The notes under the pieces are model-generated. The model did not search any database. It was not told the DNA's origin and was given only the letters and a program-made list of their open reading frames with translations. The position numbers were made by a program, and so were the translations under genes. From sequence record MN850574.1: a stretch of 64,000 nucleotides of DNA, one strand, 5' to 3'. Positions 27,259 through 41,135 of this stretch are shown here, one piece after another. Source of the DNA: Escherichia phage kaaroe. How positions within the stretch are numbered: position 1 is the stretch's first letter; each line of letters begins with the position of its first letter.

Positions 27259-27264
27259 TAGGTG

Positions 27265-27861: not shown

Positions 27862-28208
27862 ACATTGACATTCAACGACTAATTGATCACCTTCATGCGG
27901 GAATACCTTATCATGGCGACGTTACCCGCGATATTCTTGATGTGTTGGAATATACCCAGCAAGTGATCAACGAAAAGCAAGCATTAGAATCACGGATCGA
28001 CGAGGCAATAGGAAATATTGCAACCGAAGATGAATTAGATAATCACTTTGGACCTGTTCTTGATGCTCTTATGGCTGCGCGTGATACCAAACTGAAACAG
28101 GATAAACAAGAATTTATCCTTGATGGTTTAGCTCGTTATCACAATGCAATTGATATTATGAATAACCAGCATGATTATGCTATTAGTATTTTGCGAGGTC
28201 TGGCATGA
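27858..28208 (+). CDS. hypothetical protein (116 aa)
   Basis: ORF with GGAGGG RBS; start overlaps upstream stop. Confidence 0.5.
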   Translation: MNIDIQRLIDHLHAGIPYHGDVTRDILDVLEYTQQVINEKQALESRIDEAIGNIATEDELDNHFGPVLDALMAARDTKLKQDKQEFILDGLARYHNAIDIMNNQHDYAISILRGLA

Positions 28209-28489
28209 AAGACACAAACGAATTTAACGGTATTAAGGTAAGCCCGAATTTTATTGTTCCATCACTGGTGACTAAGCTGAATGGTCATATGGTCGCTTTG
28301 TCTTCCACACCGCCAGAATCAGGAAAGTTTATCACTATCGTAGTTTATGCGGGGCAAATTTTCTCTCATGATTGCTGCATGAAAAATGGTCAGTTGATGG
28401 TTGCAAATTATGACTATGGAGACCTTGAATGGGAAGTTTTAGATCTGGCTAAAAGTGCTGAAATTCTGGGCTATATTCGATTAGTTTAA
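28205..28489 (+). CDS. hypothetical protein (94 aa)
   Basis: ORF overlapping upstream stop. Confidence 0.5.
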   Translation: MKDTNEFNGIKVSPNFIVPSLVTKLNGHMVALSSTPPESGKFITIVVYAGQIFSHDCCMKNGQLMVANYDYGDLEWEVLDLAKSAEILGYIRLV

Positions 28490-28506
28490 AAATTTCTTAG
28501 AAAGTG

Positions 28507-28535
28507 TTGACAGCGATCCGGTGTTATTGCATAAT
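28507..28535 (+). promoter_or_regulatory. early promoter TTGACA-17-CATAAT (PeSL-like)
   Basis: -35 28507-28512, -10 28530-28535, leader ACACCCATCGAAACGAGATACAC. Confidence 0.65.
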
Positions 28536-28576
28536 ACACCCATCGAAACGAGATACACTTTCTAGGAGAATCAAAA

Positions 28577-28798
28577 ATGGCAACTGTTAAAATTATCAAA
28601 TCTTCCGCTGGTTTCGGTTTCATGCGTGGCGCTAAGTACCCGATGATTATTGAAAACGTTGCCATCGAAGATGGTATGGCTAAAGTAACCAGCCGTCAAT
28701 TGTTCGAAGCGGGTGTTAAAACTGCTGAATCATGGGCGCTTCGCTATCCTAACAAAACATGGTCTTTCTTCCTGGATGGTGAAGCAGAGGTCATCTAA
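28577..28798 (+). CDS. hypothetical abundant early protein (73 aa), KIEIID-family relative
   Basis: VKIIKSSAGFGFMRGAKYPMIIENV resembles 30924/31140 paralogs; biased codon usage. Confidence 0.6.
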   Translation: MATVKIIKSSAGFGFMRGAKYPMIIENVAIEDGMAKVTSRQLFEAGVKTAESWALRYPNKTWSFFLDGEAEVI

Positions 28799-28816
28799 GT
28801 AATATTATCAATCAAT

Positions 28817-28840
28817 GCCCCTTAATTGGGGCTTTTCTTG
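28817..28840 (+). terminator. intrinsic terminator
   Basis: gcccc-ttaatt-ggggc hairpin then TTTTCTTG. Confidence 0.55.
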
Positions 28841-28852
28841 TGAGGAAATTTT

Positions 28853-29638
28853 ATGGCAATATCTTCTGGATGGGTAGGATCATCTGCTGTGTCCGAGACT
28901 GGTCAACGGTGGATGAGCGCCGCAATGCAAGCTGTACGCTTAGGTCGTCCGGCGTATATGTCGGCAATGGTCGGACGCTCTAAAGAGATTCATTATAGCA
29001 TTGGTGCTAGTAACTCTTACAATAAAGACACTCTTATTAACTGGATGAAAGCACAAGGATCTACTCCGGTAGTAATTACTATCACGGGTAATATTGTTTC
29101 CCAATCTACTGGCGTTCCTTGTCTTGATTTCCCTAGCTCACTGACAAACGAATATGTAACACTCATTATTAACTCTGGTGTTCATGTATTAGGTCGTGGA
29201 GGAAATGGCGGAAGTAACTCTGCTGGTGGAGCAGGAGGAAATGCAATAAATAACGGAATTGGAACTCGTTTAAGAATAAACAATAATGGTATTATTGGTG
29301 GTGGCGGTGGTGGCGGTGCTGGTGCTAGATACAATCCTTTCCCTCAAATGGATATGAAATTTGGCGGCGGTGGAGGCCGTCCATTTGGTGCTGCGGGTGC
29401 GGCAGGAGGCGGCGCAGCGGCAGCATCTGCTGGTACAATTTCTGCCCCAGGTAAAGGCACTGTTTCTGGGGTTCATTATGGAGGAGATGGTGGAGATTTG
29501 GGAGCTGCTGGCAAATCTTCATATATTAAAGGTGGTACTGGTGGAACTGTTCACTCGGGTGGTGCTGCGGGTAAAGCTGTTACTGGTAATGCCCCTCGCT
29601 GGGATAAAGTAGGCACGATCTACGGTGCTCGCGTGTAA
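28853..29638 (+). CDS. glycine-rich protein resembling gp38-type tail-fibre adhesin
   Basis: 261 aa; N-terminus GSSAVSETGQRWMS and GRGGNGGSNSAGGAGG plus poly-Gly tracts resemble remembered T2-type gp38. Confidence 0.5.
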   Translation: MAISSGWVGSSAVSETGQRWMSAAMQAVRLGRPAYMSAMVGRSKEIHYSIGASNSYNKDTLINWMKAQGSTPVVITITGNIVSQSTGVPCLDFPSSLTNEYVTLIINSGVHVLGRGGNGGSNSAGGAGGNAINNGIGTRLRINNNGIIGGGGGGGAGARYNPFPQMDMKFGGGGGRPFGAAGAAGGGAAAASAGTISAPGKGTVSGVHYGGDGGDLGAAGKSSYIKGGTGGTVHSGGAAGKAVTGNAPRWDKVGTIYGARV

Positions 29639-29645
29639 TTTTATG

Positions 29646-29677
29646 GGCTATCCTTCGGGGTAGCCTTTTTTGTTTTT
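29646..29677 (+). terminator. intrinsic terminator (UUCG tetraloop)
   Basis: ggctatcc-ttcg-gggtagcc hairpin then TTTTTTGTTTTT. Confidence 0.7.
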
Positions 29678-29682
29678 GGGTG

Positions 29683-29710
29683 TTGACAAAGATAATCACA
29701 ATGCTATAAT
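29683..29710 (+). promoter_or_regulatory. early promoter TTGACA-16-TATAAT
   Basis: -35 29683-29688, -10 29705-29710. Confidence 0.65.
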
Positions 29711-29739
29711 GCACGCATACCAACTAAGGAGAATCAAAG

Positions 29740-30030
29740 ATGACCACTGAACAATTAATCAAGCATATCCGAAACATCATCTGGGATCTGTCTGGTGATA
29801 AAGAGGAACAAGCTGAACGCATTTTGGCTAAACTCTATAAGCGCCGTGACCGTGGATTATCAGCAAAGAAAGTAGAAACTTTCAAAGAGTTATCTTTCAT
29901 CGAAGCTAAAAAGGATGGATTAATTTATCAGTTGACAGATGGTTATTGGTGCTATGATAATACTCGCTATGACACCGCGACCGATGCATTAAAAGCATGT
30001 AATGACCATCTTCGCAAAACTACAATTTGA
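29740..30030 (+). CDS. hypothetical protein (96 aa)
   Basis: ORF behind promoter, AAGGAGAATCAAAG RBS. Confidence 0.55.
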   Translation: MTTEQLIKHIRNIIWDLSGDKEEQAERILAKLYKRRDRGLSAKKVETFKELSFIEAKKDGLIYQLTDGYWCYDNTRYDTATDALKACNDHLRKTTI

Positions 30031-30040
30031 GGATTATATT

Positions 30041-30238
30041 ATGAAGGTTAAAACATTGGCTGATATGGATGAGATCGAGACTCAAGTACATGCGGCGCTA
30101 GTCGGTTATGAGTTCGGGCGATTCCTTAATAAGTTCCATGATTATAAATGCTTAAATTGTGGTGCTCATAACGTAATTGGTGCTTGCTGTATTAATCCTG
30201 TTATAGTACCATATAAAAGAAATGAAACAGAAGAGTGA
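30041..30238 (+). CDS. small Cys-rich protein (65 aa)
   Basis: ATG with GAGGATTATATTATG RBS; CLNCGAHNVIGACC. Confidence 0.5.
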   Translation: MKVKTLADMDEIETQVHAALVGYEFGRFLNKFHDYKCLNCGAHNVIGACCINPVIVPYKRNETEE

Positions 30239-30248
30239 GGAATATAGA

Positions 30249-30683
30249 ATGAAAAAGTTGATGGCGACCTTTCATGATATGCGAGATCTACCAGGTTTAG
30301 CACATGTCGATTTTCCTGTTACTATGGAAGTGTCGGAATATGACGGTTATCATGATATTCTGTTTATTAAAAACACTGAGTTTATCCGCTTAGGCGCTAA
30401 ACCTGCTGTACTATACCCAGAAGGAAACCGGACAGCGGTCAGAAAAACAAATTCTGTTAAATTGGCATTTAGTTCAGATGTTGGCTTGGAACCCGCTTTC
30501 GGATATACTCCGGTCGAGATCACAAAATCGAATACTTCTTTCGTGAAAGTTGGAGAGAAAACGCATATTTCAACTATGCCGAACGGTGCACAATATCTAT
30601 GGTCCGATTTCTGCCAGCGTTATGAGCGTTTATCATGGGCTACCCGCTTATGGTGTGTTGAGTATAAGGAGATCACAAAATGA
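30249..30683 (+). CDS. hypothetical protein (144 aa)
   Basis: ATG at 30249 with GAGGAATATAGA RBS (track ORF begins 30222). Confidence 0.5.
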   Translation: MKKLMATFHDMRDLPGLAHVDFPVTMEVSEYDGYHDILFIKNTEFIRLGAKPAVLYPEGNRTAVRKTNSVKLAFSSDVGLEPAFGYTPVEITKSNTSFVKVGEKTHISTMPNGAQYLWSDFCQRYERLSWATRLWCVEYKEITK

Positions 30684-30934
30684 TCACCGGATATATTCCA
30701 TATTCAACGACAAAACACATTATCGGATTCGAAGACATAGAAAAGTCTTGCTTTCCTCTCAAGGTTGAAGTAGACTTTATTACAGCGAACGGATGGGCTT
30801 ACGTCACTGTTTCAGAAATGAAGCGCGTAGGGTGGGAAAACTGCATACACCTACCGCATCTTATCCTAGATGTTCGCGCTGGTGAAATTGATATTGCTGG
30901 AAAGATCTATGGAGACAATGTAAATGAAAATTGA
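30680..30934 (+). CDS. hypothetical protein (84 aa)
   Basis: ORF overlapping upstream stop. Confidence 0.5.
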   Translation: MITGYIPYSTTKHIIGFEDIEKSCFPLKVEVDFITANGWAYVTVSEMKRVGWENCIHLPHLILDVRAGEIDIAGKIYGDNVNEN

Positions 30935-31121
30935 AATTATTGATGACGGTGGATTTTCTTTCATGAATGGCGTTAAACTTCCTATCATCGTGGAAGGTCG
31001 TCGTTATGGGCTTGATTATCTTGTAGAAACGCAGGAACTACAAAAAGCTGGCGTACCAATTAAAGGTTATTTTCCTGAATATGAATGGTGTTTTCGTGCA
31101 AATGAAGCCTGGGCGGTATAA
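30924..31121 (+). CDS. KIEIID-family small protein, paralog A
   Basis: MKIEIIDDGGFSFMNGVKLPIIVEG...YEWCF. Confidence 0.5.
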   Translation: MKIEIIDDGGFSFMNGVKLPIIVEGRRYGLDYLVETQELQKAGVPIKGYFPEYEWCFRANEAWAV

Positions 31122-31139
31122 CTAATTGAGGATTATATT

Positions 31140-31397
31140 ATGAAGATTGAAATTATTGACCGTGCTGGGTATACTTTCATGGAAAAAGTTAAACTTCCTA
31201 TCATTGTTGAAGGTCGCCCATTATGTCAAGGATTCATGATAAAGACCAGAGAACTACGAAATGCGGGTGTTCCTGTTGAATCATGTTTCAGTGATGATTA
31301 TGAATGGTGTTTCAGTGGTTTACGTGCACATAAAGTAAAAGAAGCACGAAAAGCATCATGGTTTGCTAGCTTTAATAACTGGTTGAGGAAACTGTGA
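31140..31397 (+). CDS. KIEIID-family small protein, paralog B
   Basis: MKIEIIDRAGYTFMEKVKLPIIVEG...YEWCF; tandem with 30924. Confidence 0.55.
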   Translation: MKIEIIDRAGYTFMEKVKLPIIVEGRPLCQGFMIKTRELRNAGVPVESCFSDDYEWCFSGLRAHKVKEARKASWFASFNNWLRKL

Positions 31398-31735
31398 TGT
31401 GTGAAATGAAAAAGTATATGATTCTAAGTGATTCAGGATACACCTTCTTACAAGGTATTGATAGTGACTCGCGTCCTATTGTATATGGAAAAGAACATCC
31501 GACCATTCCTGAGATCATTCTTGTTACGACAACATCACTTCGTAGAGTGTCAGAAAGTCCATACCTACAAAACGTAAAGCAGGACCGAGAATGGGCTTTC
31601 GAGTTAGGTAAAGACCTTGTTGAATGGGTAAACTGTGAAGACAAGAACCAACGAAATCATGAAGGGAAGATTTCACGAATTGTACTGAGAGGAAAACTTG
31701 ATGAAATCAAAAACAGGATTCTACAATCAATGTAA
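31397..31735 (+). CDS. hypothetical protein (112 aa)
   Basis: ATG overlapping upstream stop (TGATG). Confidence 0.5.
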   Translation: MCEMKKYMILSDSGYTFLQGIDSDSRPIVYGKEHPTIPEIILVTTTSLRRVSESPYLQNVKQDREWAFELGKDLVEWVNCEDKNQRNHEGKISRIVLRGKLDEIKNRILQSM

Positions 31736-31955
31736 CAGGGTATTCATTGTCCTGCTGGATTCGGAAAACTATCCAGAACTCTCTAAAACGCGTTTTCCGT
31801 GCGTTGTTGAAGCACGCAAGGCATATGCACCAGATAAACAGTTTATAGTGTTAGCGAGCGAAATAGAGCGGTTAGGGGCGATTCCTAAACATGATGAATA
31901 TGTGTTTTGTAAGGCGTTCTCTGTGCCTCATTTTGGTGTAGAGTTAATTCACTAA
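31701..31955 (+). CDS. hypothetical protein (84 aa)
   Basis: ATG at 31701, overlaps upstream 3' end. Confidence 0.5.
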   Translation: MKSKTGFYNQCNRVFIVLLDSENYPELSKTRFPCVVEARKAYAPDKQFIVLASEIERLGAIPKHDEYVFCKAFSVPHFGVELIH

Positions 31956-31972
31956 AATCATAAAAAAAGTTG

Positions 31973-32001
31973 TTGACAGGGGATCGGTGATCCCCTATAC
32001 T
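31973..32001 (+). promoter_or_regulatory. early promoter with embedded inverted repeat (PeSL-like)
   Basis: TTGACA 31973-31978, -10 TATACT 31996-32001, IR GGGGATC-GGT-GATCCCC. Confidence 0.65.
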
Positions 32002-32043
32002 ACACACATCAAAACGAAACACACTTTCTTAAGGAGAATCAAA

Positions 32044-32322
32044 ATGAGCAACCTGTCTTTCGCTAAAGTAGAAATTTCTAAAACTCGCGGTGGCTTTAAA
32101 ATCAAAACTTCCAACATCACTTCCTGTCGTGGTTGCGTCCGGTTTGCGTTCGACTTGGCAGCGAAGCTGGGTATTAAAACCTTTACCGTTGAGAGCGGAT
32201 CTACCTGGACCACTCTGATTGTTACTGCCGCTTGGATCAATGGCGAGTATGTAGAAAAAGCATACTTTGACATTTTCTATGACTACGAAGAAAAATGCTT
32301 TTATGCACTGCAAGACATGTAA
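32044..32322 (+). CDS. hypothetical abundant early protein (92 aa)
   Basis: ATG behind promoter (track ORF begins 31987); biased codon usage. Confidence 0.6.
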   Translation: MSNLSFAKVEISKTRGGFKIKTSNITSCRGCVRFAFDLAAKLGIKTFTVESGSTWTTLIVTAAWINGEYVEKAYFDIFYDYEEKCFYALQDM

Positions 32323-32332
32323 GGAGGACAAT

Positions 32333-32641
32333 TTGACAACACAAGATATTGTTAATGTACTTTATATCTGGATTACTGGTGCAATGATCTCGTATCTAGT
32401 ATTCTGCTTGTATGCCAGATTCGACAAGGACACCAAAGAGGTCGATACAGGAGCATTTTGTATTGCTGCAATCGTCTGGCCTATAACGTGGACCGTGGTT
32501 GATATTGTTATGTGTTATAAGGGGCTGAAATGTTTTGGTTTGATGATTGCTGGTAAACCGGAAGCGAAGCCGCGCACGCATAAAGGATTCAGTCCAAAAC
32601 CAGTCGATGACGGTCGATATAAACCGGAAGAAGATTTTTAA
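32333..32641 (+). CDS. membrane protein; probable TTG start
   Basis: AAGGAGG RBS 5 nt before in-frame TTG 32333; alternative ATG at 32384. Confidence 0.4.
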   Translation: MTTQDIVNVLYIWITGAMISYLVFCLYARFDKDTKEVDTGAFCIAAIVWPITWTVVDIVMCYKGLKCFGLMIAGKPEAKPRTHKGFSPKPVDDGRYKPEEDF

Positions 32642-32648
32642 AAAACTG

Positions 32649-32677
32649 TTGACATGAAAATGCGGTTATCATATAAT
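32649..32677 (+). promoter_or_regulatory. early promoter TTGACA-17-TATAAT with IR
   Basis: -35 32649-32654, -10 32672-32677; IR TGCGGT...ACCGCA flanking -10. Confidence 0.65.
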
Positions 32678-32711
32678 GACCGCATCAAATGAACGATGTG
32701 AGGATTATATT

Positions 32712-33020
32712 ATGTTTATCTCTTCTGCTACTCCAGTTAAAGTTTACGGCGAAACTGTGTATCTTCCGGCTGGCTATCGCTATGTTATCGTTGACCGTCA
32801 CGGTGTAGTGTATGCTTTTAAAGGCCGTCCGGTTGAGATTGATTCTGAATACGGTACATGGGGATATAAAGCCGCATACATGGATATTCCTGATTTGGGA
32901 GTACGTTTAGGAAGATTTGATAATGATGTTAAACCATGCTTGATTAAGTATGCATCCTATGGTAAAACTGTTAAACCAAATAGCGTCGGCTGGATTGATA
33001 ACGGCGTTAACGTGAAATAA
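32712..33020 (+). CDS. hypothetical protein (102 aa)
   Basis: ATG with GAGGATTATATTATG RBS. Confidence 0.55.
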   Translation: MFISSATPVKVYGETVYLPAGYRYVIVDRHGVVYAFKGRPVEIDSEYGTWGYKAAYMDIPDLGVRLGRFDNDVKPCLIKYASYGKTVKPNSVGWIDNGVNVK

Positions 33021-33034
33021 TGTGAGGTGAATTT

Positions 33035-33328
33035 ATGCTGTCTACTAGTAAAATGGTTGTTGGTGTCGCTGAAAATGCTTTAGAAATCGCTGATGAGGCT
33101 TTGACCGTCGCTTATGTTCGACGTGAAGAATTGCTATTGAAACACGCGGATCTATTGGTTGAACGGAAAGAGACTATGAAAGCTGGTAAAAGCACGCTCG
33201 CTATTGCCATTAAACTATCTGATAGTGAAGATGAGATCGTGGAGATCCACACTAAGATCAAGGAAGTAGAAAAATACTCTGAAATGCTGCGACATAATCT
33301 TGATGAATTAGGGGTAAATCATGGCTAA
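33035..33328 (+). CDS. hypothetical protein (97 aa)
   Basis: ORF with GTGAGGTGA RBS. Confidence 0.5.
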   Translation: MLSTSKMVVGVAENALEIADEALTVAYVRREELLLKHADLLVERKETMKAGKSTLAIAIKLSDSEDEIVEIHTKIKEVEKYSEMLRHNLDELGVNHG

Positions 33329-33542
33329 GTTACGATCTGGACGAGTTTTAACGCTGGCTGAACTGAAAGAAAAAGGTTTAGACCCTGATTCTGTAGGTAT
33401 TAGACCTATTAATTACATTCTGTTTCTAGAGGGTAAACTCTTTACTAATGCTCATCCAGCATTAAATGCACCACATTTTTATAAGTGTAATGACTTTAAC
33501 GGTTATATCGTTCCAGAATATTTCTTAGAATTTGATGATTAG
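33321..33542 (+). CDS. hypothetical protein (73 aa)
   Basis: ORF overlapping upstream 3' end. Confidence 0.45.
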   Translation: MAKLRSGRVLTLAELKEKGLDPDSVGIRPINYILFLEGKLFTNAHPALNAPHFYKCNDFNGYIVPEYFLEFDD

Positions 33543-33828
33543 TATAAAACACTCACCGACCGGAAAGGGGTCGGTGATCTTCAATGATGATAAACCGTTA
33601 ATCTTAATTCGAAATGGTGACTGGACATTACATGATACCCGTGTTACTATCCATTCACCGCCTAAAGAGATTCAACGGGAATTGGTTAGGATCGCCCTAA
33701 CCGATAAGCATAAAGAGGCGGTAGGCTATTCTCTTTTGAAGTTGGGTGTTGACTTTCCTTTCGAGTATACGCTAACATTCAGAGAGCAGTCAGTGAAGCT
33801 AACAGAGATTCTATTCTCTGAGATATGA
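33535..33828 (+). CDS. hypothetical protein (97 aa)
   Basis: ATG at 33535 (track ORF begins at TTG 33532). Confidence 0.45.
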   Translation: MISIKHSPTGKGSVIFNDDKPLILIRNGDWTLHDTRVTIHSPPKEIQRELVRIALTDKHKEAVGYSLLKLGVDFPFEYTLTFREQSVKLTEILFSEI

Positions 33829-33838
33829 GGATTATATA

Positions 33839-34270
33839 ATGGTTTATCCAACCCCTAGTAAGATTTACATTGACGATACTCATTTTCTTGTTGAAATTAT
33901 GGGTATCAAGTTTAGTGGTAATGTTAAAATTGTAGAATGGGAATTGCACGGTCAATCTGTAACCGATTATGACCATTATATCCCTTTCGGTGGCGATGAT
34001 AACTTTGTTTCATTCGACCATGAAGGTTACATGAACTTTGAGCAAGACGATGTACCTTTGTATCTGGCAATGATGGATATTCCTACTAAAACAGAATATA
34101 CAGAGGGTGATTGCGATTGTTGCGGATACTACAGCGTAACAGATATTAAGCTGCTATCCGGTAAAGAACTTTACAAAGAGGATCATTTCGGAAACTGCAA
34201 TTTTCCGTGTGATTGGCAAGAATTTTTCGAACTGGTAGAGATTGAGCGAACTTATGTGAGGAAGGGATAA
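33839..34270 (+). CDS. hypothetical Cys-rich protein (143 aa)
   Basis: GAGGATTATATAATG RBS; CDCCGYY...CNFPCDW. Confidence 0.5.
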   Translation: MVYPTPSKIYIDDTHFLVEIMGIKFSGNVKIVEWELHGQSVTDYDHYIPFGGDDNFVSFDHEGYMNFEQDDVPLYLAMMDIPTKTEYTEGDCDCCGYYSVTDIKLLSGKELYKEDHFGNCNFPCDWQEFFELVEIERTYVRKG

Positions 34271-35082
34271 TGAAGAAAGCATTAGGTTTAATTCCCTATA
34301 CTGGCAATAAGGAAAAGTTATTGCCGGGTGTTAGTAAGTATTTCCCTAAGCACTATAACCGCTTTGTTGATGCCTTTTGTGGCGGCTTGAGCGTGTCTCT
34401 GTACGTAGAAGGGGATGTGCTGGCTAATGACTATGATCACCGCTTAATTGAAGCGTACAAAGCGATTGACGAGTGTCCTGATCCGGTTTCTACGATCAAG
34501 CGGATTATTGCCGAGAATGATTTGTCTCGTGATGATAAAGATGCTTACATGGCATTCCGTAAGAAGTATAATGAGAATCCAGATCCGCTATCTCTGTTTG
34601 TTCTGATTCAGCACAGTTTTAGCAACATTAACCGTCATAACAGGAAGGGCGAATTTAATGCTAATTTTGGTCGCCGGACTTTTAACGAAAACGCGGTAGA
34701 GCGTGTCCTGAATTTTAAGGAAGAAAACAAAGACGGTCGAATCAGTTTTACGTCTGGTCGTTATGACGAGATCGAGATCTTGCCAGGTGATTTCGTTTAT
34801 TTGGACCCGCCGTACCTTATCACTTCTGCGGAATATAATAAGTTCTGGAGTGACGAGGAAGAGATTAAATTCTATCAGTGGGTAGAATCTATTATGGCGC
34901 GTGGTTTTCAGTTTGGTATAAGTAATGTCACGCATCATAAGGGAAAGGCAAATGATCATCTTCTTGACTTTATCAAGCGGAATGATTTAAACTGCGTCTT
35001 GTTGAATAAGACCTATTGCCTAGATCGTTCAGGTGGCAAGTCTTCTGATACGCAAGAAGTTTATGTAACTAACGTAGATTGA
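34270..35082 (+). CDS. dam: DNA adenine methyltransferase Dam
   Basis: 270 aa; FVDAFCGGLSVS (motif I) and DPPY (motif IV); collinear similarity to remembered T4 Dam. Confidence 0.85.
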   Translation: MKKALGLIPYTGNKEKLLPGVSKYFPKHYNRFVDAFCGGLSVSLYVEGDVLANDYDHRLIEAYKAIDECPDPVSTIKRIIAENDLSRDDKDAYMAFRKKYNENPDPLSLFVLIQHSFSNINRHNRKGEFNANFGRRTFNENAVERVLNFKEENKDGRISFTSGRYDEIEILPGDFVYLDPPYLITSAEYNKFWSDEEEIKFYQWVESIMARGFQFGISNVTHHKGKANDHLLDFIKRNDLNCVLLNKTYCLDRSGGKSSDTQEVYVTNVD

Positions 35083-35090
35083 GGTATAAC

Positions 35091-35372
35091 ATGGTAGAAA
35101 TTTTTGGTTTTGAAGGTTACAACTGTAAGTATTGCCAGAATGCAAAGCGCCTTTGTGAAGCGCGTAAGATCCCTTACATCTACATTCCGGTTAATGATGG
35201 TGTGGACGAAAACGGTCGCCCGGTAAAGATTGATTCTATCATTGCCGATATTCAGGATCGCGCAGGGGTAGAAGTTATTGCCACCATGCCGCAGATTTTC
35301 TATGATGGTGATTATATCGGTGGCTTTGATGAGTTCCGATCCTTTGTAGTCAAAAACAAGATTAATGGTTAA
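35091..35372 (+). CDS. nrdC: phage thioredoxin/glutaredoxin NrdC-like
   Basis: CKYC redox motif, TMPQIFYDGDYIGGFDEF like T4 NrdC; ATG at 35091 (track begins TTG 35079). Confidence 0.75.
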   Translation: MVEIFGFEGYNCKYCQNAKRLCEARKIPYIYIPVNDGVDENGRPVKIDSIIADIQDRAGVEVIATMPQIFYDGDYIGGFDEFRSFVVKNKING

Positions 35373-35396
35373 ATACCTTCTTTGGAGGGTGAATTT

Positions 35397-35870
35397 ATGT
35401 TACTGACTGCTAAGAGTGCTAAAGAGTACAAACAAGAACTATTCGAAAAACAGGGGGGCATTTGCCCCCTTTGTCAATTGCCACTTTTTGAGGATATGAG
35501 CAAAAACCATCTTGACCACGACCACGATCTAGATGGGAAAGGGCAAGGCCGCGTAAGGGGATTGCTTCATTCGTGTTGCAACCGCCTAGAAGGATCGTTG
35601 ACCGGAGACTTTAAACGGTTTGGTGTTGGTGCTTTAGGTGCTGATTTCGTTGTTTGGGCTACAAACTATGTTAATTACATCAAAGGAGACTACACCAACA
35701 ATCATTTACATCCTCAATATGCTGTTGATAAAGTAAAACGATTTTCACGCTTGACACGCGCGGAGATGGTTGATATTATGGACGCAGAAGGTTTCGATTA
35801 CTGCGACGCTGATACAAGAGAAGAGATCACGAAGAAGTATAAGAAACAATTTATACAAAGATTAAGATAG
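35397..35870 (+). CDS. 49: endonuclease VII (Holliday junction resolvase) gp49
   Basis: CPLCQ...HLDHDHDLDG...RGLLHSCCN matches T4 EndoVII zinc/His-Me motifs; ATG at 35397. Confidence 0.85.
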   Translation: MLLTAKSAKEYKQELFEKQGGICPLCQLPLFEDMSKNHLDHDHDLDGKGQGRVRGLLHSCCNRLEGSLTGDFKRFGVGALGADFVVWATNYVNYIKGDYTNNHLHPQYAVDKVKRFSRLTRAEMVDIMDAEGFDYCDADTREEITKKYKKQFIQRLR

Positions 35871-35873
35871 TAG

Positions 35874-35902
35874 TTGACAATAAGAAATGGGAGTAGTAAA
35901 AT
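35874..35902 (+). promoter_or_regulatory. early promoter with embedded inverted repeat (PeSL-like)
   Basis: TTGACA 35874-35879, -10 TAAAAT 35897-35902, IR GGGAGTAGTAAAATACTCCC. Confidence 0.65.
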
Positions 35903-35933
35903 ACTCCCATCTAATCAAGAAGGAGAATCAACA

Positions 35934-36206
35934 ATGCGTAAGATGTTTAAATCCGGTGTTGCCTATGTTTTTAAATCTGAGCAAGCACATAAAGACTTCT
36001 TAGATGATGAATACGAGGGGGTGAAAGATACCTACGAAGTCATCAAGAATGGGTTTACTGTTCTTAAAGTGTCACCTGTTGGTTATGTAAGTGAAATCTC
36101 GGTTGATGGGAAAACATACACCGCTAAAGACTTTGATCCGCGTTGGGAATTTATGCTGCTTCCGTGTGAGCGCATTCTGTTCCGTGCTGTTCAATTAGTG
36201 AAATGA
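35934..36206 (+). CDS. GFxVLKV-family protein, paralog 1 (90 aa)
   Basis: NGFTVLKVSPVGYVSEISVDGKTYTAKDF module shared with next three genes. Confidence 0.55.
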   Translation: MRKMFKSGVAYVFKSEQAHKDFLDDEYEGVKDTYEVIKNGFTVLKVSPVGYVSEISVDGKTYTAKDFDPRWEFMLLPCERILFRAVQLVK

Positions 36207-36220
36207 TAGAGGATTATATT

Positions 36221-36787
36221 ATGGTACAGAAAACGTATAAATTGTATCCGGCTAAGTCTTCAAATGATGCTGTTTTTGAACGAGGTCGTTATTACACTTT
36301 CCGTAATGCTGAGTCCGCAGAGGAATTTGTTAAACGCTACCCACAACATAACAAGTTCCTGTATGGTGTGCTTCACAGGGGCTTTAAAGTTCTTACGGTT
36401 AATGTTATGGGTAAAGTGTATTTGGTAGAAACTCATGATTATGAGGGTGCATCAATCATGATTGATGCAAGCGAGCGCAAATACTTTAAACGCATCACTA
36501 AAAAGCAGTTTGAAGAAATGAAACCAGTTAAGAAAGAAGAATCTCTGGAAGATCTGATTAACTTGTTTGGTAAAGTTCGCTCTATCTCCTTTGCGATTGA
36601 AGATGACATTACCGACAATAAAATCTTTATCAAGAACGCGGAAGACCTGAAAGAGTTCCTTATTGAAAATAGATCTCGGCTGGAAACCTTTCTTGAAAGT
36701 GAAATTATTCGACATGATACCTACGCTAAATTCAGCGCCGATAAAGTAGCTGAACTGAAAGAGATCCAAAAGTCATTTAACGCTTGA
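36221..36787 (+). CDS. GFxVLKV-family protein, paralog 2 (188 aa)
   Basis: RGFKVLTVNV...ERKYFKRITKKQFEEM...LKEFLIEN. Confidence 0.55.
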   Translation: MVQKTYKLYPAKSSNDAVFERGRYYTFRNAESAEEFVKRYPQHNKFLYGVLHRGFKVLTVNVMGKVYLVETHDYEGASIMIDASERKYFKRITKKQFEEMKPVKKEESLEDLINLFGKVRSISFAIEDDITDNKIFIKNAEDLKEFLIENRSRLETFLESEIIRHDTYAKFSADKVAELKEIQKSFNA

Positions 36788-36812
36788 CATGATGAAACGG
36801 GAGTAGTAAGAT
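36784..36812 (+). promoter_or_regulatory. early promoter (PeSL-like); -35 overlaps stop codon of upstream gene
   Basis: TTGACA 36784-36789, -10 TAAGAT 36807-36812, IR GGGAGTAGTAAGATACTCCC. Confidence 0.65.
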
Positions 36813-36843
36813 ACTCCCATCTAAACAACGAGAGGATTATATT

Positions 36844-38022
36844 ATGGCTAAATTCTTTGAAGGTCATTACTATGCATTCCGTGAAGGCGGTAAAGATGAG
36901 TTTCTAGACTTTTCTCGCTATTCAATTATTCTGACCGATGCTTCGCGCCGTGGTCATATTCGGGTTGCTGAAATCGTAGAAAAGGGCTTTAAAGTATTAG
37001 AAAAAGATGACCACGGTCATGTTATTACTATTGAAGCTGGAGATGTAGTTTATTCCGCTGAGGATATCGTTTATTATTGGTCTACTATGATTATGCACAA
37101 TGAGCGCAAATACTTTAAACGTATCTCAAAAGAGGCATACGAAGCGATGAACAAGAAAGAGGATGCAATGCCGACTTACTTTGAAAAAGGTAAATGTTAT
37201 TCGTTTACCCCAGAAGGTTTGCAAGAATTTAAGCGATTCTGGGGAGAGCATGACCCAGAGCACAAAGAAGCCATGAAACTTGTTGATTTTGTCGAATATG
37301 GCTTTTTAGTTGAAGAAGAATTGCACGGATCAGCTACCATGATCACCGCGAAAGGTGAAACCGTCAAGGCGGACCGTTTTTGTGATCAATGGAATTGCTT
37401 GTTTGACGGTAGCGAATTTGAATACTTCGCGGAAATCACGAAACAACAATTTCATTCTATGCAAGCGGATGGTCAGAGATTTAAAGTAGGTGAACGCTAC
37501 AAACCAAATCAGCATAATTTGCCATATTGGTTTACCGCTGAAACTGTATCAAGTCATGTTGTTGAAATTGTTCAAAAGCTGGGACAAGGATTTAAGGTAA
37601 CTAAAGTAGATGATTATGGAAGTGTTGACGCGGTTGAAATTGATGGTGTAGAATATACACCGAAATCTTTCGGTCTTTGCTGGTATCACTTGATCAGCAA
37701 TGATGAACGTTATAACTTTGTTGAACTGCCATCTGAACCGGAAGAAGCACTAGAAGATCATGATCATCTGTCTGAACTGGTTAAGCTGTTTGGTGATCTG
37801 CCGGATGGTGTAGGCGTGGCGGTAATGGGTGAAGGTGCTGTTATCCGAAACCTGAAAGACTTTAAAAAGTTCTTGATTGACATGCTGCCTAAACTTGATG
37901 ATAATCTAGATACAGATATTCAGAATCGCAAAGAAATTGTTAAAGAGACTGAAAAAGAGATCGAAGAGATTCGAGCAATTCGCCAGAAGGTGAAAGCAGT
38001 AAAGAAAAAAGTTAGTGCTTGA
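36844..38022 (+). CDS. GFxVLKV-family protein, paralog 3 (392 aa, internally duplicated module)
   Basis: Two copies of GF(K/L)V...DG..Y module, NERKYFKRISK, LKDFKKFLIDM and Lys/Glu-rich C-terminus. Confidence 0.6.
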   Translation: MAKFFEGHYYAFREGGKDEFLDFSRYSIILTDASRRGHIRVAEIVEKGFKVLEKDDHGHVITIEAGDVVYSAEDIVYYWSTMIMHNERKYFKRISKEAYEAMNKKEDAMPTYFEKGKCYSFTPEGLQEFKRFWGEHDPEHKEAMKLVDFVEYGFLVEEELHGSATMITAKGETVKADRFCDQWNCLFDGSEFEYFAEITKQQFHSMQADGQRFKVGERYKPNQHNLPYWFTAETVSSHVVEIVQKLGQGFKVTKVDDYGSVDAVEIDGVEYTPKSFGLCWYHLISNDERYNFVELPSEPEEALEDHDHLSELVKLFGDLPDGVGVAVMGEGAVIRNLKDFKKFLIDMLPKLDDNLDTDIQNRKEIVKETEKEIEEIRAIRQKVKAVKKKVSA

Positions 38023-38046
38023 CATGCGAAGGGAGTATGCTATAAT
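38019..38046 (+). promoter_or_regulatory. early promoter (PeSL-like); -35 overlaps stop codon
   Basis: TTGACA 38019-38024, TATAAT 38041-38046, IR GGGAGTATGCTATAATACTCCC. Confidence 0.65.
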
Positions 38047-38076
38047 ACTCCCACTTAACAACGAGAGGATTATATT

Positions 38077-38571
38077 ATGTGGGTACAAGATGTTTGGTAT
38101 ACTGTAACTAAAGAAAACCTTGACGCATTCAGCGACCAATCTTGCGCTAATAGCTCAATTGCTGGTATACTTACTGATGTGTTTGGTGGTGTAGATAAAA
38201 TTCGTTTTAAAGTTGTTGTTAGTTCGCTGGGTCAGGTGAAAGATCTTTACACCGAAGATAAAGACCTTGATCTTGAACTTCGTCTTCGTATTGATAATGC
38301 AAGTCTAGGTTATTGGTTTGAAGATAACGAATATGAATACTTCACGCCAGCAATTAAAGTTTTTGCGACTAAACTGGAAGCTGTACTGAATCTCCGACCA
38401 ATTAATGTTGACGGATACATTATCAAAAATATTCAGGATTGGGAGTTGTATCTAGATCAGGTTATCCGAAATAGTAAGCAGGAAGCCGCTAATAAGAAGC
38501 GACAAGAGATTAAACAGCTTAAAGCTGAACTAGAAGCTAAAGAAAAAGAATTAGCAGAACTGGTAAAATAA
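38077..38571 (+). CDS. hypothetical protein with coiled-coil C-terminus (164 aa)
   Basis: ORF behind promoter; C-terminal KQLKAELEAKEKELAELVK. Confidence 0.55.
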   Translation: MWVQDVWYTVTKENLDAFSDQSCANSSIAGILTDVFGGVDKIRFKVVVSSLGQVKDLYTEDKDLDLELRLRIDNASLGYWFEDNEYEYFTPAIKVFATKLEAVLNLRPINVDGYIIKNIQDWELYLDQVIRNSKQEAANKKRQEIKQLKAELEAKEKELAELVK

Positions 38572-38615
38572 CTATCAACGAGCGGGAGAAATCCCGCTTT
38601 TTCATAGGTGATACA

Positions 38616-40478
38616 ATGGAAAAACTAATCAAAGACATTACAGAGATCGCAACGGGTAAAGAAAACGAAGTAAGCAAAGAGAACGCGAACAAAGACGCGC
38701 GAACATTCCCGACACGTCGAGATCTGATTGCTGGTGCTGTGTCTAAACAGATTGCTAAAACCGTGTTACCTGAGCACATCTATAAAGCGCATGTAGACGG
38801 TGACATTCATTATCATGATATGGATTATGCACCCGCTATGCCGTTTACTAACTGCTGTCTTGTTAATCTCAAAGACATGTTAGAGAATGGTTTTAAATTG
38901 GGTAGCGCACAAATCGAAAGTCCGAAATCAATCGGCGTTGCTTGTGCTGTAACCGCTCAAATTATCGCACAGGTGGCAAGTCATCAATATGGCGGGACCA
39001 CAATCGCAAACATCGATCAGGTGTTAGCACCGTATGTTGAGAAAACATATCATAAACACCTTGCTGATGCCGAAACCTACGGAATCAAAGCTGATACTCT
39101 CTATGCACAAGAGAAGACAGAAAAAGAAACTTTAGACGGGTATCAAGCGTTGGAATATGAAATCAACACTTTGTTCTCCACCAACGGTCAAACGCCTTTT
39201 GTGACTTTAACCTTTGGTATGGGTACTAGCTGGGAAGAAAAACTGATTCAGAAAGCGATCCTGAACGTTCGAACTAAAGGTTTAGGTAAAGATGGTATCA
39301 CTCCGGTGTTTCCTAAGCTGGTGATGTTCTTAGAAGAAGGATTAAACCTTAAACCGGAAGATCCGAACTACGACATTAAGCAACTTGCATTGGAATGTTC
39401 TAGTAAGCGTCTTTACCCTGATTATATCTCTGCGAAGAATAACCGTAGTATCACCGGATCTAGTGTTCCGGTTAGCCCGATGGGTTGTCGTAGCTTCCTG
39501 GGTGTGTGGCATAATGAGAAAGGCGAAGAAGTATTAGACGGACGTAATAACTTGGGTGTTGTGACCCTGAATCTTCCGCGTATTGCCCTTATTGCCGCGC
39601 GTCGTGCTGGTAAAGCGTCTGTAATGCGCAGAATTGAGCTATTCGAACAAGAGCTAGCCAATCGTATGCCTATTTGCTTTGATGCGCTCATGAGTCGCGT
39701 AGACGCTTTAAAAGGGGCTAAAGCCAATGTTGCTCCGGTGCTGTATACCGAAGGTGCGTTTTTCCGTATTCATCAAAACGATGAAATTTTGGAAGTGTTG
39801 AAAGATGGTCGCGCTAGTATCTCTCTTGGATATATTGGTTTACATGAGGTATTGAGCGTCCTGTTTGGTGTTCATCCGTTTGATTCGGAAGATGCGCAGC
39901 GATACGGTAAACATATTCTTAAGATCTTGCGTCATTATACTGAAAAATGGAAGGACGAAACCGGACTTGGGTTTAGTCTTTACGGTACTCCAGCCGAGAG
40001 CCTTTGCTATCGATTTAATCGACTGGACCGAGAGCAATTTGGTATTGTTAAGGGTGCTACCGATAAAGACTGGTACACCAACTCATTCCACCTTGACGTA
40101 GACCGGAAAGTCACTCCATTTGAGAAAATTGACTTTGAGAAAGATTATCACTGGCTGGCGTCCGGTGGCATGATCTCTTATGTTGAGTTCCCAGACATGA
40201 AAAACAACCTGAAAGGTCTTGAAACTGTAGTAGACTATGCAATGGATAAATTGCACTACTTCGGTGTTAATACTCCTTCTGATGTATGTCATGTATGCGG
40301 ATCTACTAAGGAAATGAGAGCGACCGAGTCTGGTTTTGTTTGTCCTGATTGCGGTAATGACAATCTGGACAAGATGAATGTTATCCGTCGCGTTAGTGGA
40401 TATCTTGGATCTGTTGATCTGCGTCCATTCAACCACGGGAAACACTCCGAGATGGTAAACCGCGTTAAGCACATGTAA
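38616..40478 (+). CDS. nrdD: anaerobic ribonucleoside-triphosphate reductase NrdD
   Basis: 620 aa; C-terminal glycyl-radical motif RVSGYLGS and CxxC zinc ribbon; uninterrupted (no intron). Confidence 0.9.
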   Translation: MEKLIKDITEIATGKENEVSKENANKDARTFPTRRDLIAGAVSKQIAKTVLPEHIYKAHVDGDIHYHDMDYAPAMPFTNCCLVNLKDMLENGFKLGSAQIESPKSIGVACAVTAQIIAQVASHQYGGTTIANIDQVLAPYVEKTYHKHLADAETYGIKADTLYAQEKTEKETLDGYQALEYEINTLFSTNGQTPFVTLTFGMGTSWEEKLIQKAILNVRTKGLGKDGITPVFPKLVMFLEEGLNLKPEDPNYDIKQLALECSSKRLYPDYISAKNNRSITGSSVPVSPMGCRSFLGVWHNEKGEEVLDGRNNLGVVTLNLPRIALIAARRAGKASVMRRIELFEQELANRMPICFDALMSRVDALKGAKANVAPVLYTEGAFFRIHQNDEILEVLKDGRASISLGYIGLHEVLSVLFGVHPFDSEDAQRYGKHILKILRHYTEKWKDETGLGFSLYGTPAESLCYRFNRLDREQFGIVKGATDKDWYTNSFHLDVDRKVTPFEKIDFEKDYHWLASGGMISYVEFPDMKNNLKGLETVVDYAMDKLHYFGVNTPSDVCHVCGSTKEMRATESGFVCPDCGNDNLDKMNVIRRVSGYLGSVDLRPFNHGKHSEMVNRVKHM

Positions 40479-40484
40479 ATTTCA

Positions 40485-40515
40485 GCCGATCCGAAAGGGT
40501 CGGCTTTTTCGTTTT
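40485..40515 (+). terminator. intrinsic terminator (GAAA tetraloop, conserved family)
   Basis: gccgatcc-gaaa-gggtcggc hairpin then TTTTTCGTTTT. Confidence 0.7.
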
Positions 40516-40521
40516 GGGGTG

Positions 40522-40549
40522 TTGACAACATGATTAGCTAATGTATAAT
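40522..40549 (+). promoter_or_regulatory. early promoter TTGACA-16-TATAAT
   Basis: -35 40522-40527, -10 40544-40549, leader GCTCACATCGAAAACAACGAGAGG. Confidence 0.65.
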
Positions 40550-40578
40550 GCTCACATCGAAAACAACGAGAGGACAAC

Positions 40579-41118
40579 ATGATGATGTTTTGTGTACTGA
40601 ACAAAGAAGTTAAACTTCGTAAACTGGAAATTGGCGATGGTGTTGTTGTTAAAATGCACGCTAGCACATTGACTAGTTTTAATTTAAAGGAAAGTTTTTT
40701 TATTAGAGGAACGGTGGTTAATATCTGCTGGAGTAAAGGCGAAGGAATCCGTAGCTTTTGCGTAATTGACGATGATAATAACCTGTATGTGATTCGCTAT
40801 CATAATAATTCTGTATTGGTCTATACCGACAATTCACGAGAATTGTATACTCTTGAATTTGTTAAGCGTACTGATTGCGATCGATTTGTTCGTGCTTATG
40901 AAGAAGATGGCTGTTTTGCGACTGAAACAGAAACAAATGAATATGTTCCTATGGAAGTAGGAGCAGAAATTAAACACAAGATCACGGATCGTATTTTTAA
41001 GGTTGTTGCGGTTGCTCATACTCAATTTGTAGCGCAAGCGCCGGATGAAGAATTTATTATCTACAATATTGGTAATGCAAGTTCTCATTTTCATAATGTA
41101 CTATATCGCGACCTTTGA
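40579..41118 (+). CDS. hypothetical protein (179 aa)
   Basis: ORF behind promoter. Confidence 0.55.
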   Translation: MMMFCVLNKEVKLRKLEIGDGVVVKMHASTLTSFNLKESFFIRGTVVNICWSKGEGIRSFCVIDDDNNLYVIRYHNNSVLVYTDNSRELYTLEFVKRTDCDRFVRAYEEDGCFATETETNEYVPMEVGAEIKHKITDRIFKVVAVAHTQFVAQAPDEEFIIYNIGNASSHFHNVLYRDL

Positions 41119-41135
41119 TAATGTGTGAGGTGAAT

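Follow-up and report, generated by a model that had tools for sequence, protein, structure and literature searches.

A Dam methyltransferase of the RB49 type, the loss of restriction sites and the probable cover of GATC in a Krischvirus genome

A dam gene in a relative of phage T4 that apparently makes no hmC raises the question of what shields its DNA from restriction; a 2010 review left open how "seemingly unmodified" T4 relatives escape (PMC2993671). The window examined here is the whole 64,000-nt stretch of Escherichia phage kaaroe (MN850574.1), a segment of a Krischvirus (RB49-like) genome that is collinear with RB49 and PTE-Eco09 at 97–99% nucleotide identity; a search of the window for tRNAs and structured RNAs found none. 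The reading that we hold with good confidence is that a Dam of the RB49 type is made from an early transcription unit in a phage with ordinary cytosine, that the genome has been purged of most restriction sites, and that GATC has been kept under the cover of Dam. The coordinates of the features are collected in Table 1.

Table 1. Features of the window that bear on the role of Dam (positions counted from the first nucleotide of the window).
Feature	Position	Strand	Remarks
Whole window	1..64000		Lacks 26/64 hexamer palindromes and any EcoKI site; GGCC and AGCT under-represented; 381 GATC sites (O/E 1.08)
Second SAM-dependent methyltransferase	1..514	-	Cut by the window edge (171/279 codons); RB49ORF143w homolog, phrog_3820
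Terminator-like hairpin (1190-1163), then perfect sigma-70 promoter (1149-1121)	1121..1190	-	Ahead of two small ORFs and the second methyltransferase
Sigma-70 promoter, perfect consensus TTGACA-17-TATAAT	32649..32677	+	About 1.6 kb upstream of dam
143-aa Cys-containing ORF	33839..34270	+	RB49ORF064c homolog, phrog_8157
dam, alpha-class (D12) DNA N6-adenine methyltransferase	34270..35082	+	270 aa; ortholog of RB49 dam (AAL15134.2)
FVDAFCGGLSVS of Dam, which includes motif I (FCGGLS, SAM-binding)	34363-34398		aa 32-43
Dam motif IV (DPPY, catalytic)	34804-34815		aa 179-182
nrdC (glutaredoxin/thioredoxin)	35091..35372	+	Start 8 nt past the dam stop codon
Gene 49, recombination endonuclease VII	35397..35870	+	Directly after nrdC
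489-aa P-loop protein	45429..46898	+	GKT motif, weak DEAD-box helicase match; RB49ORF044c homolog, phrog_2467; between 55.2/nrdH and 55
55-47 interval, syntenic position of T4 alpha-gt	about 47456-48069	+	a-gt.5 and a-gt.4 homologs only
43-uvsX interval	58653..58913	+	Gene 43 ends at 58652, uvsX starts at 58914
62-aa ORF, sole ORF in the 43-uvsX interval	58714-58902		RB49ORF025c homolog, phrog_12120

The dam gene and its neighbours

The ORF encodes the Dam of RB49-type phages, a gene annotated in RB49 since the early 2000s. The protein matches the Pfam D12 N6-adenine methyltransferase family (PF02086; E 8e-31; 108 bits, cut-off 22) and the NCBIfam model TIGR00571 "dam" (151.2 bits against a cut-off of 114.85), and its residues 5–268 align with residues 2–259 of the T4 Dam structure chains 1YFJ, 1YF3 and 1Q0S (E 5e-66 to 9e-65). 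It is 46% identical over its full length to T4 Dam, 100% identical to Phi1 Dam and 95–99% identical to the Dam of most Krischvirus records; dam is present in all 58 of the Krischvirus records that match the region. The motif I sequence FCGGLSVS and the motif IV sequence DPPYLIT are identical to those of T4 Dam (PDB 1Q0S, 1YFJ, 1YFL, 1YF3), which is specific for GATC, and the DNA-recognition segment FSNxxRxN...FGxRT is mostly conserved. Motif I precedes motif IV, which is the order of the alpha class, and the alignment gives the same order in T4 Dam. Of the residues with which T4 Dam contacts GATC (K11, F111, S112, M114, R116, P126 and R130), five are kept in the aligned window protein, as K14, F117, S118, R122 and R136, and two are changed, M114 to I120 and P126 to N132. 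By its 46% identity to the T4 ortholog, the enzyme is most likely a GATC methyltransferase that acts, as that ortholog does, on N6 of adenine, and it would be active in vivo.

The initial annotation had placed a Dam homolog between a Cys-rich ORF and nrdC, and the genes lie in this way: the 143-aa Cys-containing ORF is on the 5′ side of dam, and nrdC followed by gene 49 is on the 3′ side. The stop codon TAA of the 143-aa ORF overlaps the ATG of dam (TAATG), and this overlap suggests that the RB49ORF064c homolog and dam are translationally coupled. Sigma-70 sites of perfect consensus number three in the window against 0.01 expected, and the one upstream of these genes probably drives early transcription of the unit to which dam belongs. 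Dam would then be made from a compact early unit, ORF064-dam-nrdC-49, transcribed from this promoter.

The gene had also been described as relocated, which is true relative to T4, where the order is 56-dam-61 in place of the dam-nrdC-49 of the window, but is not true in general, as the order dam-nrdC-49 is common to at least three genera. The neighbours in RB49 are those of the window (ORF064c-dam-nrdC-49), and Citrobacter phage Miller (Pseudotevenvirus) and Enterobacter phage phiEap-3 (Slopekvirus) have dam-nrdC-49-nrdD, as in Krischvirus. The upstream side differs: dam of Pseudotevenvirus and Slopekvirus adjoins a gene for nicotinamide phosphoribosyltransferase, whereas that of the window adjoins small uncharacterised ORFs.

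The hmC pathway and the state of cytosine

Searches with tblastn and phmmer (E ≤ 1) of the window and of two closely related complete genomes, RB49 and PTE-Eco09, found no homolog of T4 gp42, alpha-gt, beta-gt, alc, denB, ndd, arn or imm, the sole exception being a weak match of gp42 to td (E 0.006). Td was considered as a disguised dCMP hydroxymethylase and rejected: RB49 Td, which is 410 aa long and carries an insert of some 125 aa, keeps the catalytic Cys-His of the thymidylate synthase type and the Asn of LGLPFNVASY, where T4 gp42 has Asp. The complete genomes of the relatives contain denA (49% identity) and cd, and they also contain, adjoining gene 61, a gene 56 homolog that is 49% identical to T4 gp56 (RB49 9490-10008; PTE-Eco09 77864-78382); in RB49 coordinates, this gene lies about 440 bp past the right edge of the window. 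Thus, the statement that the hmC-pathway genes are absent stands for gene 42 and the glucosyltransferases but not for gene 56. The initial annotation had named the discovery of gene 42, gene 56 or a glucosyltransferase elsewhere in the genome as evidence against unmodified cytosine, and the gene 56 homologs of RB49 and PTE-Eco09 formally count as such. The presence of gene 56 is not diagnostic of hmC, however, because nearly every T4 relative has a gp56 homolog, most of those without hmC among them (PMC2993671 Table 4; PMC8056088).

The gene arrangement of the window agrees with this pattern. The 43-uvsX interval, in which T4 has imm.1, imm, 42, beta-gt and segA, contains only the 62-aa ORF, as had been claimed. 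A P-loop protein was also correctly seen ahead of gene 55, but it was said to occupy the place of alpha-gt, which in T4 lies between 47 and 55 and not between nrdH and 55. The absence of alpha-gt stands despite this misplaced interval, because only homologs of a-gt.5 and a-gt.4 are found in the 55-47 interval of the window, where alpha-gt and also the HNH endonuclease that RB49 has there are absent. The P-loop protein was rejected as a replacement for alpha-gt, being off the alpha-gt position, having only a weak DEAD-box/P-loop match and belonging to a functionally uncharacterised PHROG. The lineage to which the phage belongs lacks dCMP hydroxymethylase and DNA glucosyltransferases and, on the reading preferred here, packages ordinary cytosine.

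Published chemistry of related phages points in the same direction. RB49 DNA contains no hmC or ghmC, and two enzymes that are sensitive to cytosine modification, HpaII and NheI, digest it (PMC4041780). HPLC-MS of Krischvirus TB34 found canonical cytosine; the analysis reported no modified nucleosides and is silent on m6A, as its text never mentions methyladenine or adenine (PMC13390438). Further literature supports the lack of the hmC pathway in RB49-type phages (PMC2993671 Table 4; PMC12115623). Together with the missing gene 42 and glucosyltransferases in two relatives and a depletion of palindromes like that of T7 (see below), these data make the earlier proposal of unmodified cytosine well supported.

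It has to be considered whether the lineage might instead hypermodify its cytosine by a cryptic or conditional pathway without known enzymes, in which case the absence of gene 42 and the glucosyltransferases would be uninformative and the uncharacterised genes of the window would become candidates, those for the second methyltransferase and the P-loop protein among them. This idea draws on a 2026 report that Krischvirus SAP contains hmdC, alpha-glucosyl-hmdC and gentiobiosyl-hmdC and is sensitive to BrxU with no known genes responsible (PMC13390438), and on a parallel puzzle in Slopekvirus, where KP27 DNA resists restriction and KP15 DNA does not (PMC5219037). However, SAP is 99.96% identical to the unmodified TB34, and seven Tequatrovirus phages collected alongside it have the same modification profile (PMC13390438); for these reasons, mixing or cross-contamination of the DNA sample is the more parsimonious explanation. 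The digestion of RB49 DNA and the canonical nature of Td as a thymidylate synthase also speak against such a pathway, and the deep avoidance of palindromes, of which T4 shows none, would not persist under habitual hypermodification of cytosine. We regard a cryptic pathway as very improbable.

Site loss, GATC and the role of Dam

Site counts were compared with a Markov expectation and with non-palindromic words, using T7, T4 and RB43 as length-matched 40-kb controls. The hexamer palindromes missing from the window (26/64) compare with 1.0% of the non-palindromic hexamers, and 22–26 of the 64 have been eliminated from the genome. EcoKI sites are absent where 5.6 would be expected in the window and 13.9 in the RB49 genome; the latter also has no HindIII site (about 38 expected), two EcoRI sites (46 expected) and no BamHI site (about 30 expected), and GGCC has an O/E of 0.41–0.51 (0.41 in the RB49 genome). 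This pattern is similar to that of T7, the DNA of which is unmodified: T7 lacks 19/64 hexamer palindromes against 26–27/64 in length-matched pieces of the window, and the O/E of its G+C-rich palindromes is 0.19 against 0.28–0.30. By contrast, the modified DNA of T4 has G+C-rich palindromes at an O/E of about 1.0 and lacks 4/64 hexamer palindromes in 98 kb. RB43 avoids palindromes as the window does (32/64 absent), with GATC retained (O/E 0.91). These statistics suggest that, for most targets, the main defence against restriction is the loss of sites and not methylation; the purging of most of the common 6-bp palindromes and of EcoKI sites would be the principal means by which the DNA escapes. 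Restriction-site avoidance itself is a classical phenomenon, and no statement on it, or on palindrome avoidance, in RB49 or Krischvirus was found in the searchable literature, older subscription papers being beyond reach.

GATC is the exception. Its O/E is 1.06–1.08, and TGATCA is not depleted (39 sites against 35 expected), whereas GGATCC is absent; the cutting of TGATCA by BclI is blocked by Dam methylation, and that of GGATCC by BamHI is not. The phage Dam, together with the host Dam, would keep GATC methylated and thus hidden from enzymes specific for its unmethylated form, which is presumably why GATC occurs at its expected frequency. As the E. coli host has a Dam of its own, that of the phage may be redundant in part.

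The initial annotation had gone further and regarded methylation, by Dam and a second methyltransferase at the left edge of the window, as the principal protection of the unmodified-cytosine DNA. The second gene is a real ORF, in which LDLCAGIG (SAM-binding) is followed by VISNPPFGK (with the catalytic NPPF). Each of the two methyltransferase genes is downstream of a perfect sigma-70 promoter, both are common to the non-hmC Pseudotevenvirus and Slopekvirus, and T4 lacks the second; these features, and the undepleted GATC, speak for such a reading. However, the DNA substrate of the second enzyme is putative. It scores 38.6–40 bits against the Pfam MTS model (PF05175; cut-off 23) and 26–29 bits against an Eco57I-type methyltransferase model (cut-off 25.3), and falls below the cut-off of N6_Mtase; the solved structures that it matches best are those of PH1948, a hypothetical methyltransferase from an archaeon, and of RsmC, which methylates rRNA, M.TaqI being only weakly similar, and the name "DNA methyltransferase" of phrog_3820 is an annotation only. 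Moreover, adenine methylation of GATC, with at most one other motif, cannot shield the DNA from the numerous enzymes for which it lacks sites, and the loss of so many hexamer palindromes and of all EcoKI sites is the pattern of T7 and not that of T4. Methylation as the principal protection is therefore quite unlikely. Protection by methylation holds in a narrow form, in which Dam covers GATC alone and most other targets lack sites. The palindromes that escape avoidance were also considered as a guide to the target of the second methyltransferase, but too many sites escape to be informative. Together with the two small ORFs, this gene forms a cassette inserted between the late genes 8 and 9; in RB43, it adjoins 61.1.

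It is also conceivable that Dam is functional but serves mainly purposes other than anti-restriction, such as keeping MutH from cleaving recombination heteroduplexes at unmethylated GATC, or regulating replication, packaging or expression, with the tolerance of GATC as a by-product. The gene adjoins those for recombination and nucleotide metabolism (nrdC, 49 and nrdD) in three genera, the need for anti-restriction is not obvious in a host that is already Dam+, and T4 remains viable in the laboratory when dam is mutated. T7 provides a comparison that speaks against this view: it grows in the same Dam+ hosts without a Dam of its own and has purged GATC (6 sites against 143 expected), whereas GATC has an O/E of 0.9–1.15 in the unmodified Dam-encoding phages examined, namely the window phage and RB43. 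This contrast between purge and retention argues that the phage Dam relieves selection against GATC, and a mainly non-restriction role seems rather unlikely to us. T7 also carries Ocr. Having a Dam is not in itself a predictor of GATC tolerance, since T4 has Dam and yet strongly depletes GATC (O/E 0.31, against 1.08 in the window). The cover of GATC by Dam in a genome otherwise purged of sites is the reading we prefer.

Comparison with known systems

As a finding, this analysis adds little, because the annotation of dam, the missing hmC machinery and the unmodified DNA of RB49-type phages are all known, the latter two from published work. For the Krischvirus lineage, it offers a clarification: wholesale loss of sites answers the point left open in 2010, and GATC alone among the frequent palindromes has been spared, presumably through Dam. 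The resistance of RB49-type DNA to common 6-cutters is no evidence of base modification. In practice, Krischvirus DNA should suit enzymes that are blocked by hmC, but probably not those that need unmethylated GATC.

The window phage is another Krischvirus isolate and shows no substantive difference from RB49, Phi1 and JSE (97–99% nucleotide identity). The Dam proteins of Pseudotevenvirus (Miller, the RB43 group) and Slopekvirus (phiEap-3, the KP15 group) are about 50% identical to that of the window. E. coli Dam and DpnM (M.DpnII 1) have the D12 family and the alpha-class motif order in common with it, but are distant, aligning over the N-terminal ~190 residues with E 5e-10 and E 5e-16, respectively; the score of the window protein against the EcoDam equivalog model (48 bits) is far below the cut-off of 441. 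T4 Dam, the ortholog of known structure, works on DNA that contains hmC, and in this respect the DNA of the window phage differs.

The dam gene and its genomic setting

Initial annotation had placed a Dam homolog with a DPPY motif between a Cys-containing ORF and nrdC, and both the gene and its two neighbours are borne out. The ORF scores above the curated cut-offs of Pfam PF02086 and NCBIfam TIGR00571, gives a full-length alignment with the chains of T4 Dam crystal structures (E 5e-66), and carries FVDAFCGGLSVS at 34363-34398 and DPPY at 34804-34815. Its product is 46% identical to T4 Dam and 100% identical to the Dam of phage Phi1.

Coordinates of the features in the window
Feature	Position	Strand	Remarks
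dam	34270-35082	+	270 aa; coincides with RB49 'dam' (AAL15134.2)
143-aa Cys-containing ORF, phrog_8157			directly upstream of dam; stop codon overlaps dam ATG
nrdC, then gene 49			downstream of dam; dam-nrdC gap 8 nt
Perfect sigma-70 consensus promoter (TTGACA-17-TATAAT)	32649-32677	+	1.6 kb upstream of dam
Perfect promoter (TTGACA-17-TATAAT)	55913-55941	+	directly upstream of gene 43
Perfect sigma-70 promoter (TTGACA-17-TATAAT)	1121-1149	-	heads the cassette of the second methyltransferase
Terminator hairpin	1190-1163	-	12-bp stem; followed by promoter 1121-1149
Second methyltransferase	start 514	-	cut by window edge; LDLCAGIG and NPPF motifs; RB49ORF143w homolog
frd.2-like paralog ORF	35874-36206	+
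frd.2-like paralog ORF	36203-36787	+
frd.2-like paralog ORF	36844-38022	+	three internal copies
frd.2-like paralog ORF	44206-44706	+
489-aa protein	45429-46898		GKT P-loop; marginal DEAD-helicase match

A 4-kb query around dam retrieved 58 phage records (90-99.8% identity), every one an RB49-like coliphage of the genus Krischvirus. Window positions 1-64000 correspond to RB49 (AY343333.1) 74978-10445 on the reverse strand and are collinear with it throughout at 97-98% identity; therefore, the curated annotation of RB49 is directly transferable. Phage PTE-Eco09 (PQ306574.1) is also collinear with the window, at 97-99% identity over most of the length. Two short stretches (29324-29558 and 10466-11767) match RB49 and PTE-Eco09 weakly or not at all by megablast; one adjoins the gp38 adhesin region and the other lies close to genes 4 and 2, at a place where PTE-Eco09 has additional endonuclease and hypothetical genes, and both are suggestive of local mosaicism among isolates. 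At two junctions mobile elements of these relatives are missing: the window has no counterpart at 48068-48072 of the HNH/AP2 endonuclease gene situated between 47 and a-gt.4 in RB49 (26380-26934), and at 57167-57176 it lacks an insert of approximately 1.1 kb (PTE-Eco09 69482-70603) that splits DNA polymerase gene 43 of PTE-Eco09 into two annotated CDS.

In T4 the gene order is 56-dam-61, whereas RB49 has 56 next to 61, and its dam precedes nrdC-49. Two further phages, Citrobacter phage Miller (Pseudotevenvirus) and Enterobacter phage phiEap-3 (Slopekvirus), share the order dam-nrdC-49-nrdD and encode Dam proteins approximately 50% identical to that of the window; in Cronobacter phage S13 dam occupies the same general tk-vs-nrdC region. 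The dam-nrdC-49 arrangement is common to several non-Tevenvirinae genera, and dam is "relocated" relative to T4 but not otherwise; a simple count of lineages hints that it may be the T4 position that is derived.

Three perfect TTGACA-17-TATAAT sites occur in the window (0.01 expected from shuffling), which are presumably akin to the promoter/stem-loop cassettes (PeSLs) known from T4-like phages; the dam-containing unit would be transcribed early. Beyond dam, a frd.2-like paralogous protein family with a module of approximately 100 aa, some members of which are labeled 'goF mRNA metabolism modulator' in RefSeq, occupies 35874-38022 and recurs further downstream, with mutual matches of 28-36% identity (E 1e-4 to 1e-8).

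Genes for cytosine modification

The core of the finding, namely an annotated Dam, no hmC machinery and unmodified cytosine, is already known. Phages of the RB49 type lack gene 42, the glucosyltransferases, alc, denB and arn (Petrov et al., 2010, PMC2993671), and the hydroxymethylase and beta-glucosyltransferase were reported missing from RB49, whose DNA proved sensitive to HpaII and NheI, unlike T4 DNA (Yaung et al., 2014, PMC4041780). The genes for hmC and endonuclease IV are missing from Krischvirus and Pseudotevenvirus (2025 survey, PMC12115623). Homologs of hmC synthase and glycosyltransferases are lacking in the genus Krischvirus, and HPLC-MS found canonical bases in Krischvirus TB34, in a paper whose text has no word on methyladenine or adenine (2026, PMC13390438). 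The unmodified cytosine proposed from the sequence was correct and had been established by the RB49 digests and the TB34 analysis, with which the palindrome avoidance described below agrees.

Between the end of gene 43 (58652) and the start of uvsX (58914), where T4 has imm.1, imm, 42, beta-gt and segA, the window has a single 62-aa ORF, as had been read initially. The P-loop protein that had been assigned to the place of T4 alpha-gt exists (45429-46898), but T4 alpha-gt sits between 47 and 55, outside the nrdH-55 interval. The true syntenic interval (47472-48069) contains homologs of a-gt.5 and a-gt.4 only; thus, alpha-gt is absent in spite of the confusion of intervals.

The complete RB49 and PTE-Eco09 genomes were searched with proteins from the T4 record by tblastn, and by phmmer against every stop-to-stop segment of 50 aa or longer (E<=1), and neither search found gp42, alpha-gt, beta-gt, alc, denB, ndd, arn or imm in either genome. 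The sole signal for gp42 was a weak match (E 0.006) to thymidylate synthase; in RB49 Td the stretch LGLPFNVASY keeps the Asn typical of TS, a position occupied by Asp in gp42. The Krischvirus thymidylate synthase (RB49 AY343333.1 136870-138102, outside the window) is 410 aa long because of an insertion of approximately 125 aa after the YGxxWR motif, and its catalytic motifs are still of the TS type.

Homologs of gp56 (dCTPase-dUTPase; 49% identity), denA (49%) and cd (56%) are present. That of gp56 (RB49 9490-10008) adjoins gene 61, approximately 440 bp past the right edge of the window in RB49 coordinates. Initial annotation would have given up its reading had 42, 56 or glucosyltransferase genes occurred elsewhere in the genome; in these relatives 42 and the glucosyltransferases are absent and 56 is found, which is unsound as a refutation because nearly every T4 relative, with or without hmC, has a gp56 homolog (PMC2993671 Table 4; PMC8056088). 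The retention of gp56 and denA homologs in a phage with cytosine DNA is a puzzle already noted in the literature and bears on their specificities, since genuine dCTPase activity, or an endonuclease directed at DNA that contains cytosine, would apparently work against the phage itself. In PTE-Eco09 the homolog of denA (endonuclease II; PQ306574.1 122734-123207, outside the window) is split into two frames, either as a pseudogene or by a sequencing error, while the RB49 copy is intact.

Restriction-site avoidance and the GATC exception

Word counts were compared with maximal-order Markov expectations (observed/expected, O/E). Wholly absent are 26 of the 64 hexamer palindromes in the 64-kb window and 22 of 64 in the RB49 genome, compared with approximately 1% of non-palindromic hexamers. 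In RB49, AAGCTT (approximately 38 expected), GGATCC (approximately 30) and TCCGGA (25-65) do not occur and GAATTC occurs twice (46 expected); EcoKI sites number 0 in RB49 (13.9 expected) and in the window (5.6 expected). GGCC (O/E 0.41), AGCT (0.61) and GTAC are depleted too. By contrast, no such avoidance is seen in T4, which protects its DNA with glucosyl-hmC (HindIII, 64 sites vs 62-67 expected; EcoRI, 48 vs 46; G+C-rich palindromes, O/E approximately 1.0), whereas T7 avoids likewise, with 19/64 palindromes absent in 40 kb against 26-27/64 in length-matched pieces of the window. The site statistics, taken from the window itself, are a separate line of evidence that this lineage has evolved with unmodified cytosine in DNA open to restriction and that it defends itself mainly by lacking sites; no paper stating palindrome avoidance in RB49-type phages was found. 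Protection by methylation, as first proposed, was overstated: it is plausible for GATC alone, as Dam coverage.

GATC is undepleted in the window (381 sites, O/E 1.08) and in RB49 (945, O/E 1.06), in contrast to T7, which lacks Dam and has 6 sites against 143 expected. In RB43, a non-hmC relative from Pseudotevenvirus, a group that carries Dam (shown for Miller), the O/E is 0.91. However, T4 has Dam yet depletes GATC (O/E 0.31); therefore, the correlation between Dam and GATC tolerance is not universal. TGATCA is undepleted (39 vs 35 expected) while GGATCC is absent, and Dam methylation blocks BclI at TGATCA but not BamHI at GGATCC. The simplest reading is probably that phage Dam, added to host Dam, would keep GATC methylated and so remove selection against it.

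A second methyltransferase and an anomalous report of modification

The second methyltransferase noticed at the left edge does exist; it belongs to a short cassette flanked by late genes 8 and 9. Its complete RB49 counterpart, of 279 aa, matches the Pfam 'methyltransferase small domain' and marginally passes the Eco57I-type methylase cut-off; NCBIfam gives sub-threshold matches only (PrmC, RsmC), among solved structures it matches the hypothetical archaeal protein PH1948 and RsmC best, similarity to M.TaqI is weak, and PHROGs labels the family 'DNA methyltransferase'. It is kept in Krischvirus, has no counterpart in T4, and recurs at 44-50% identity in Pseudotevenvirus (RB43ORF030c, adjoining 61.1), Slopekvirus and some Aeromonas and jumbo phages. 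It is suggestive that this putative methyltransferase, whose substrate may be DNA, rRNA or protein, accompanies the dam-nrdC arrangement in genera that lack hmC.

Against unmodified cytosine stands Krischvirus SAP, the DNA of which was reported to contain hmdC, alpha-glucosyl-hmdC and gentiobiosyl-hmdC even though SAP shares 99.96% identity with unmodified TB34 and the responsible genes were not found (2026 Durham Collection paper, PMC13390438). The same profile was obtained for seven Tequatrovirus phages of that collection (PMC13390438), and a mixed DNA preparation would be the more parsimonious explanation. Palindrome avoidance argues against habitual cytosine hypermodification in the lineage, and a cryptic cytosine modification pathway appears very improbable. 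A somewhat parallel case is known from Slopekvirus, in which KP27 DNA resists EcoRI, NsiI, SnaBI and EcoRII and KP15 DNA does not (PMC5219037): like SAP and TB34, these are a near-identical pair of non-hmC T4-like phages, one of which is modified or resistant with no known modification genes.
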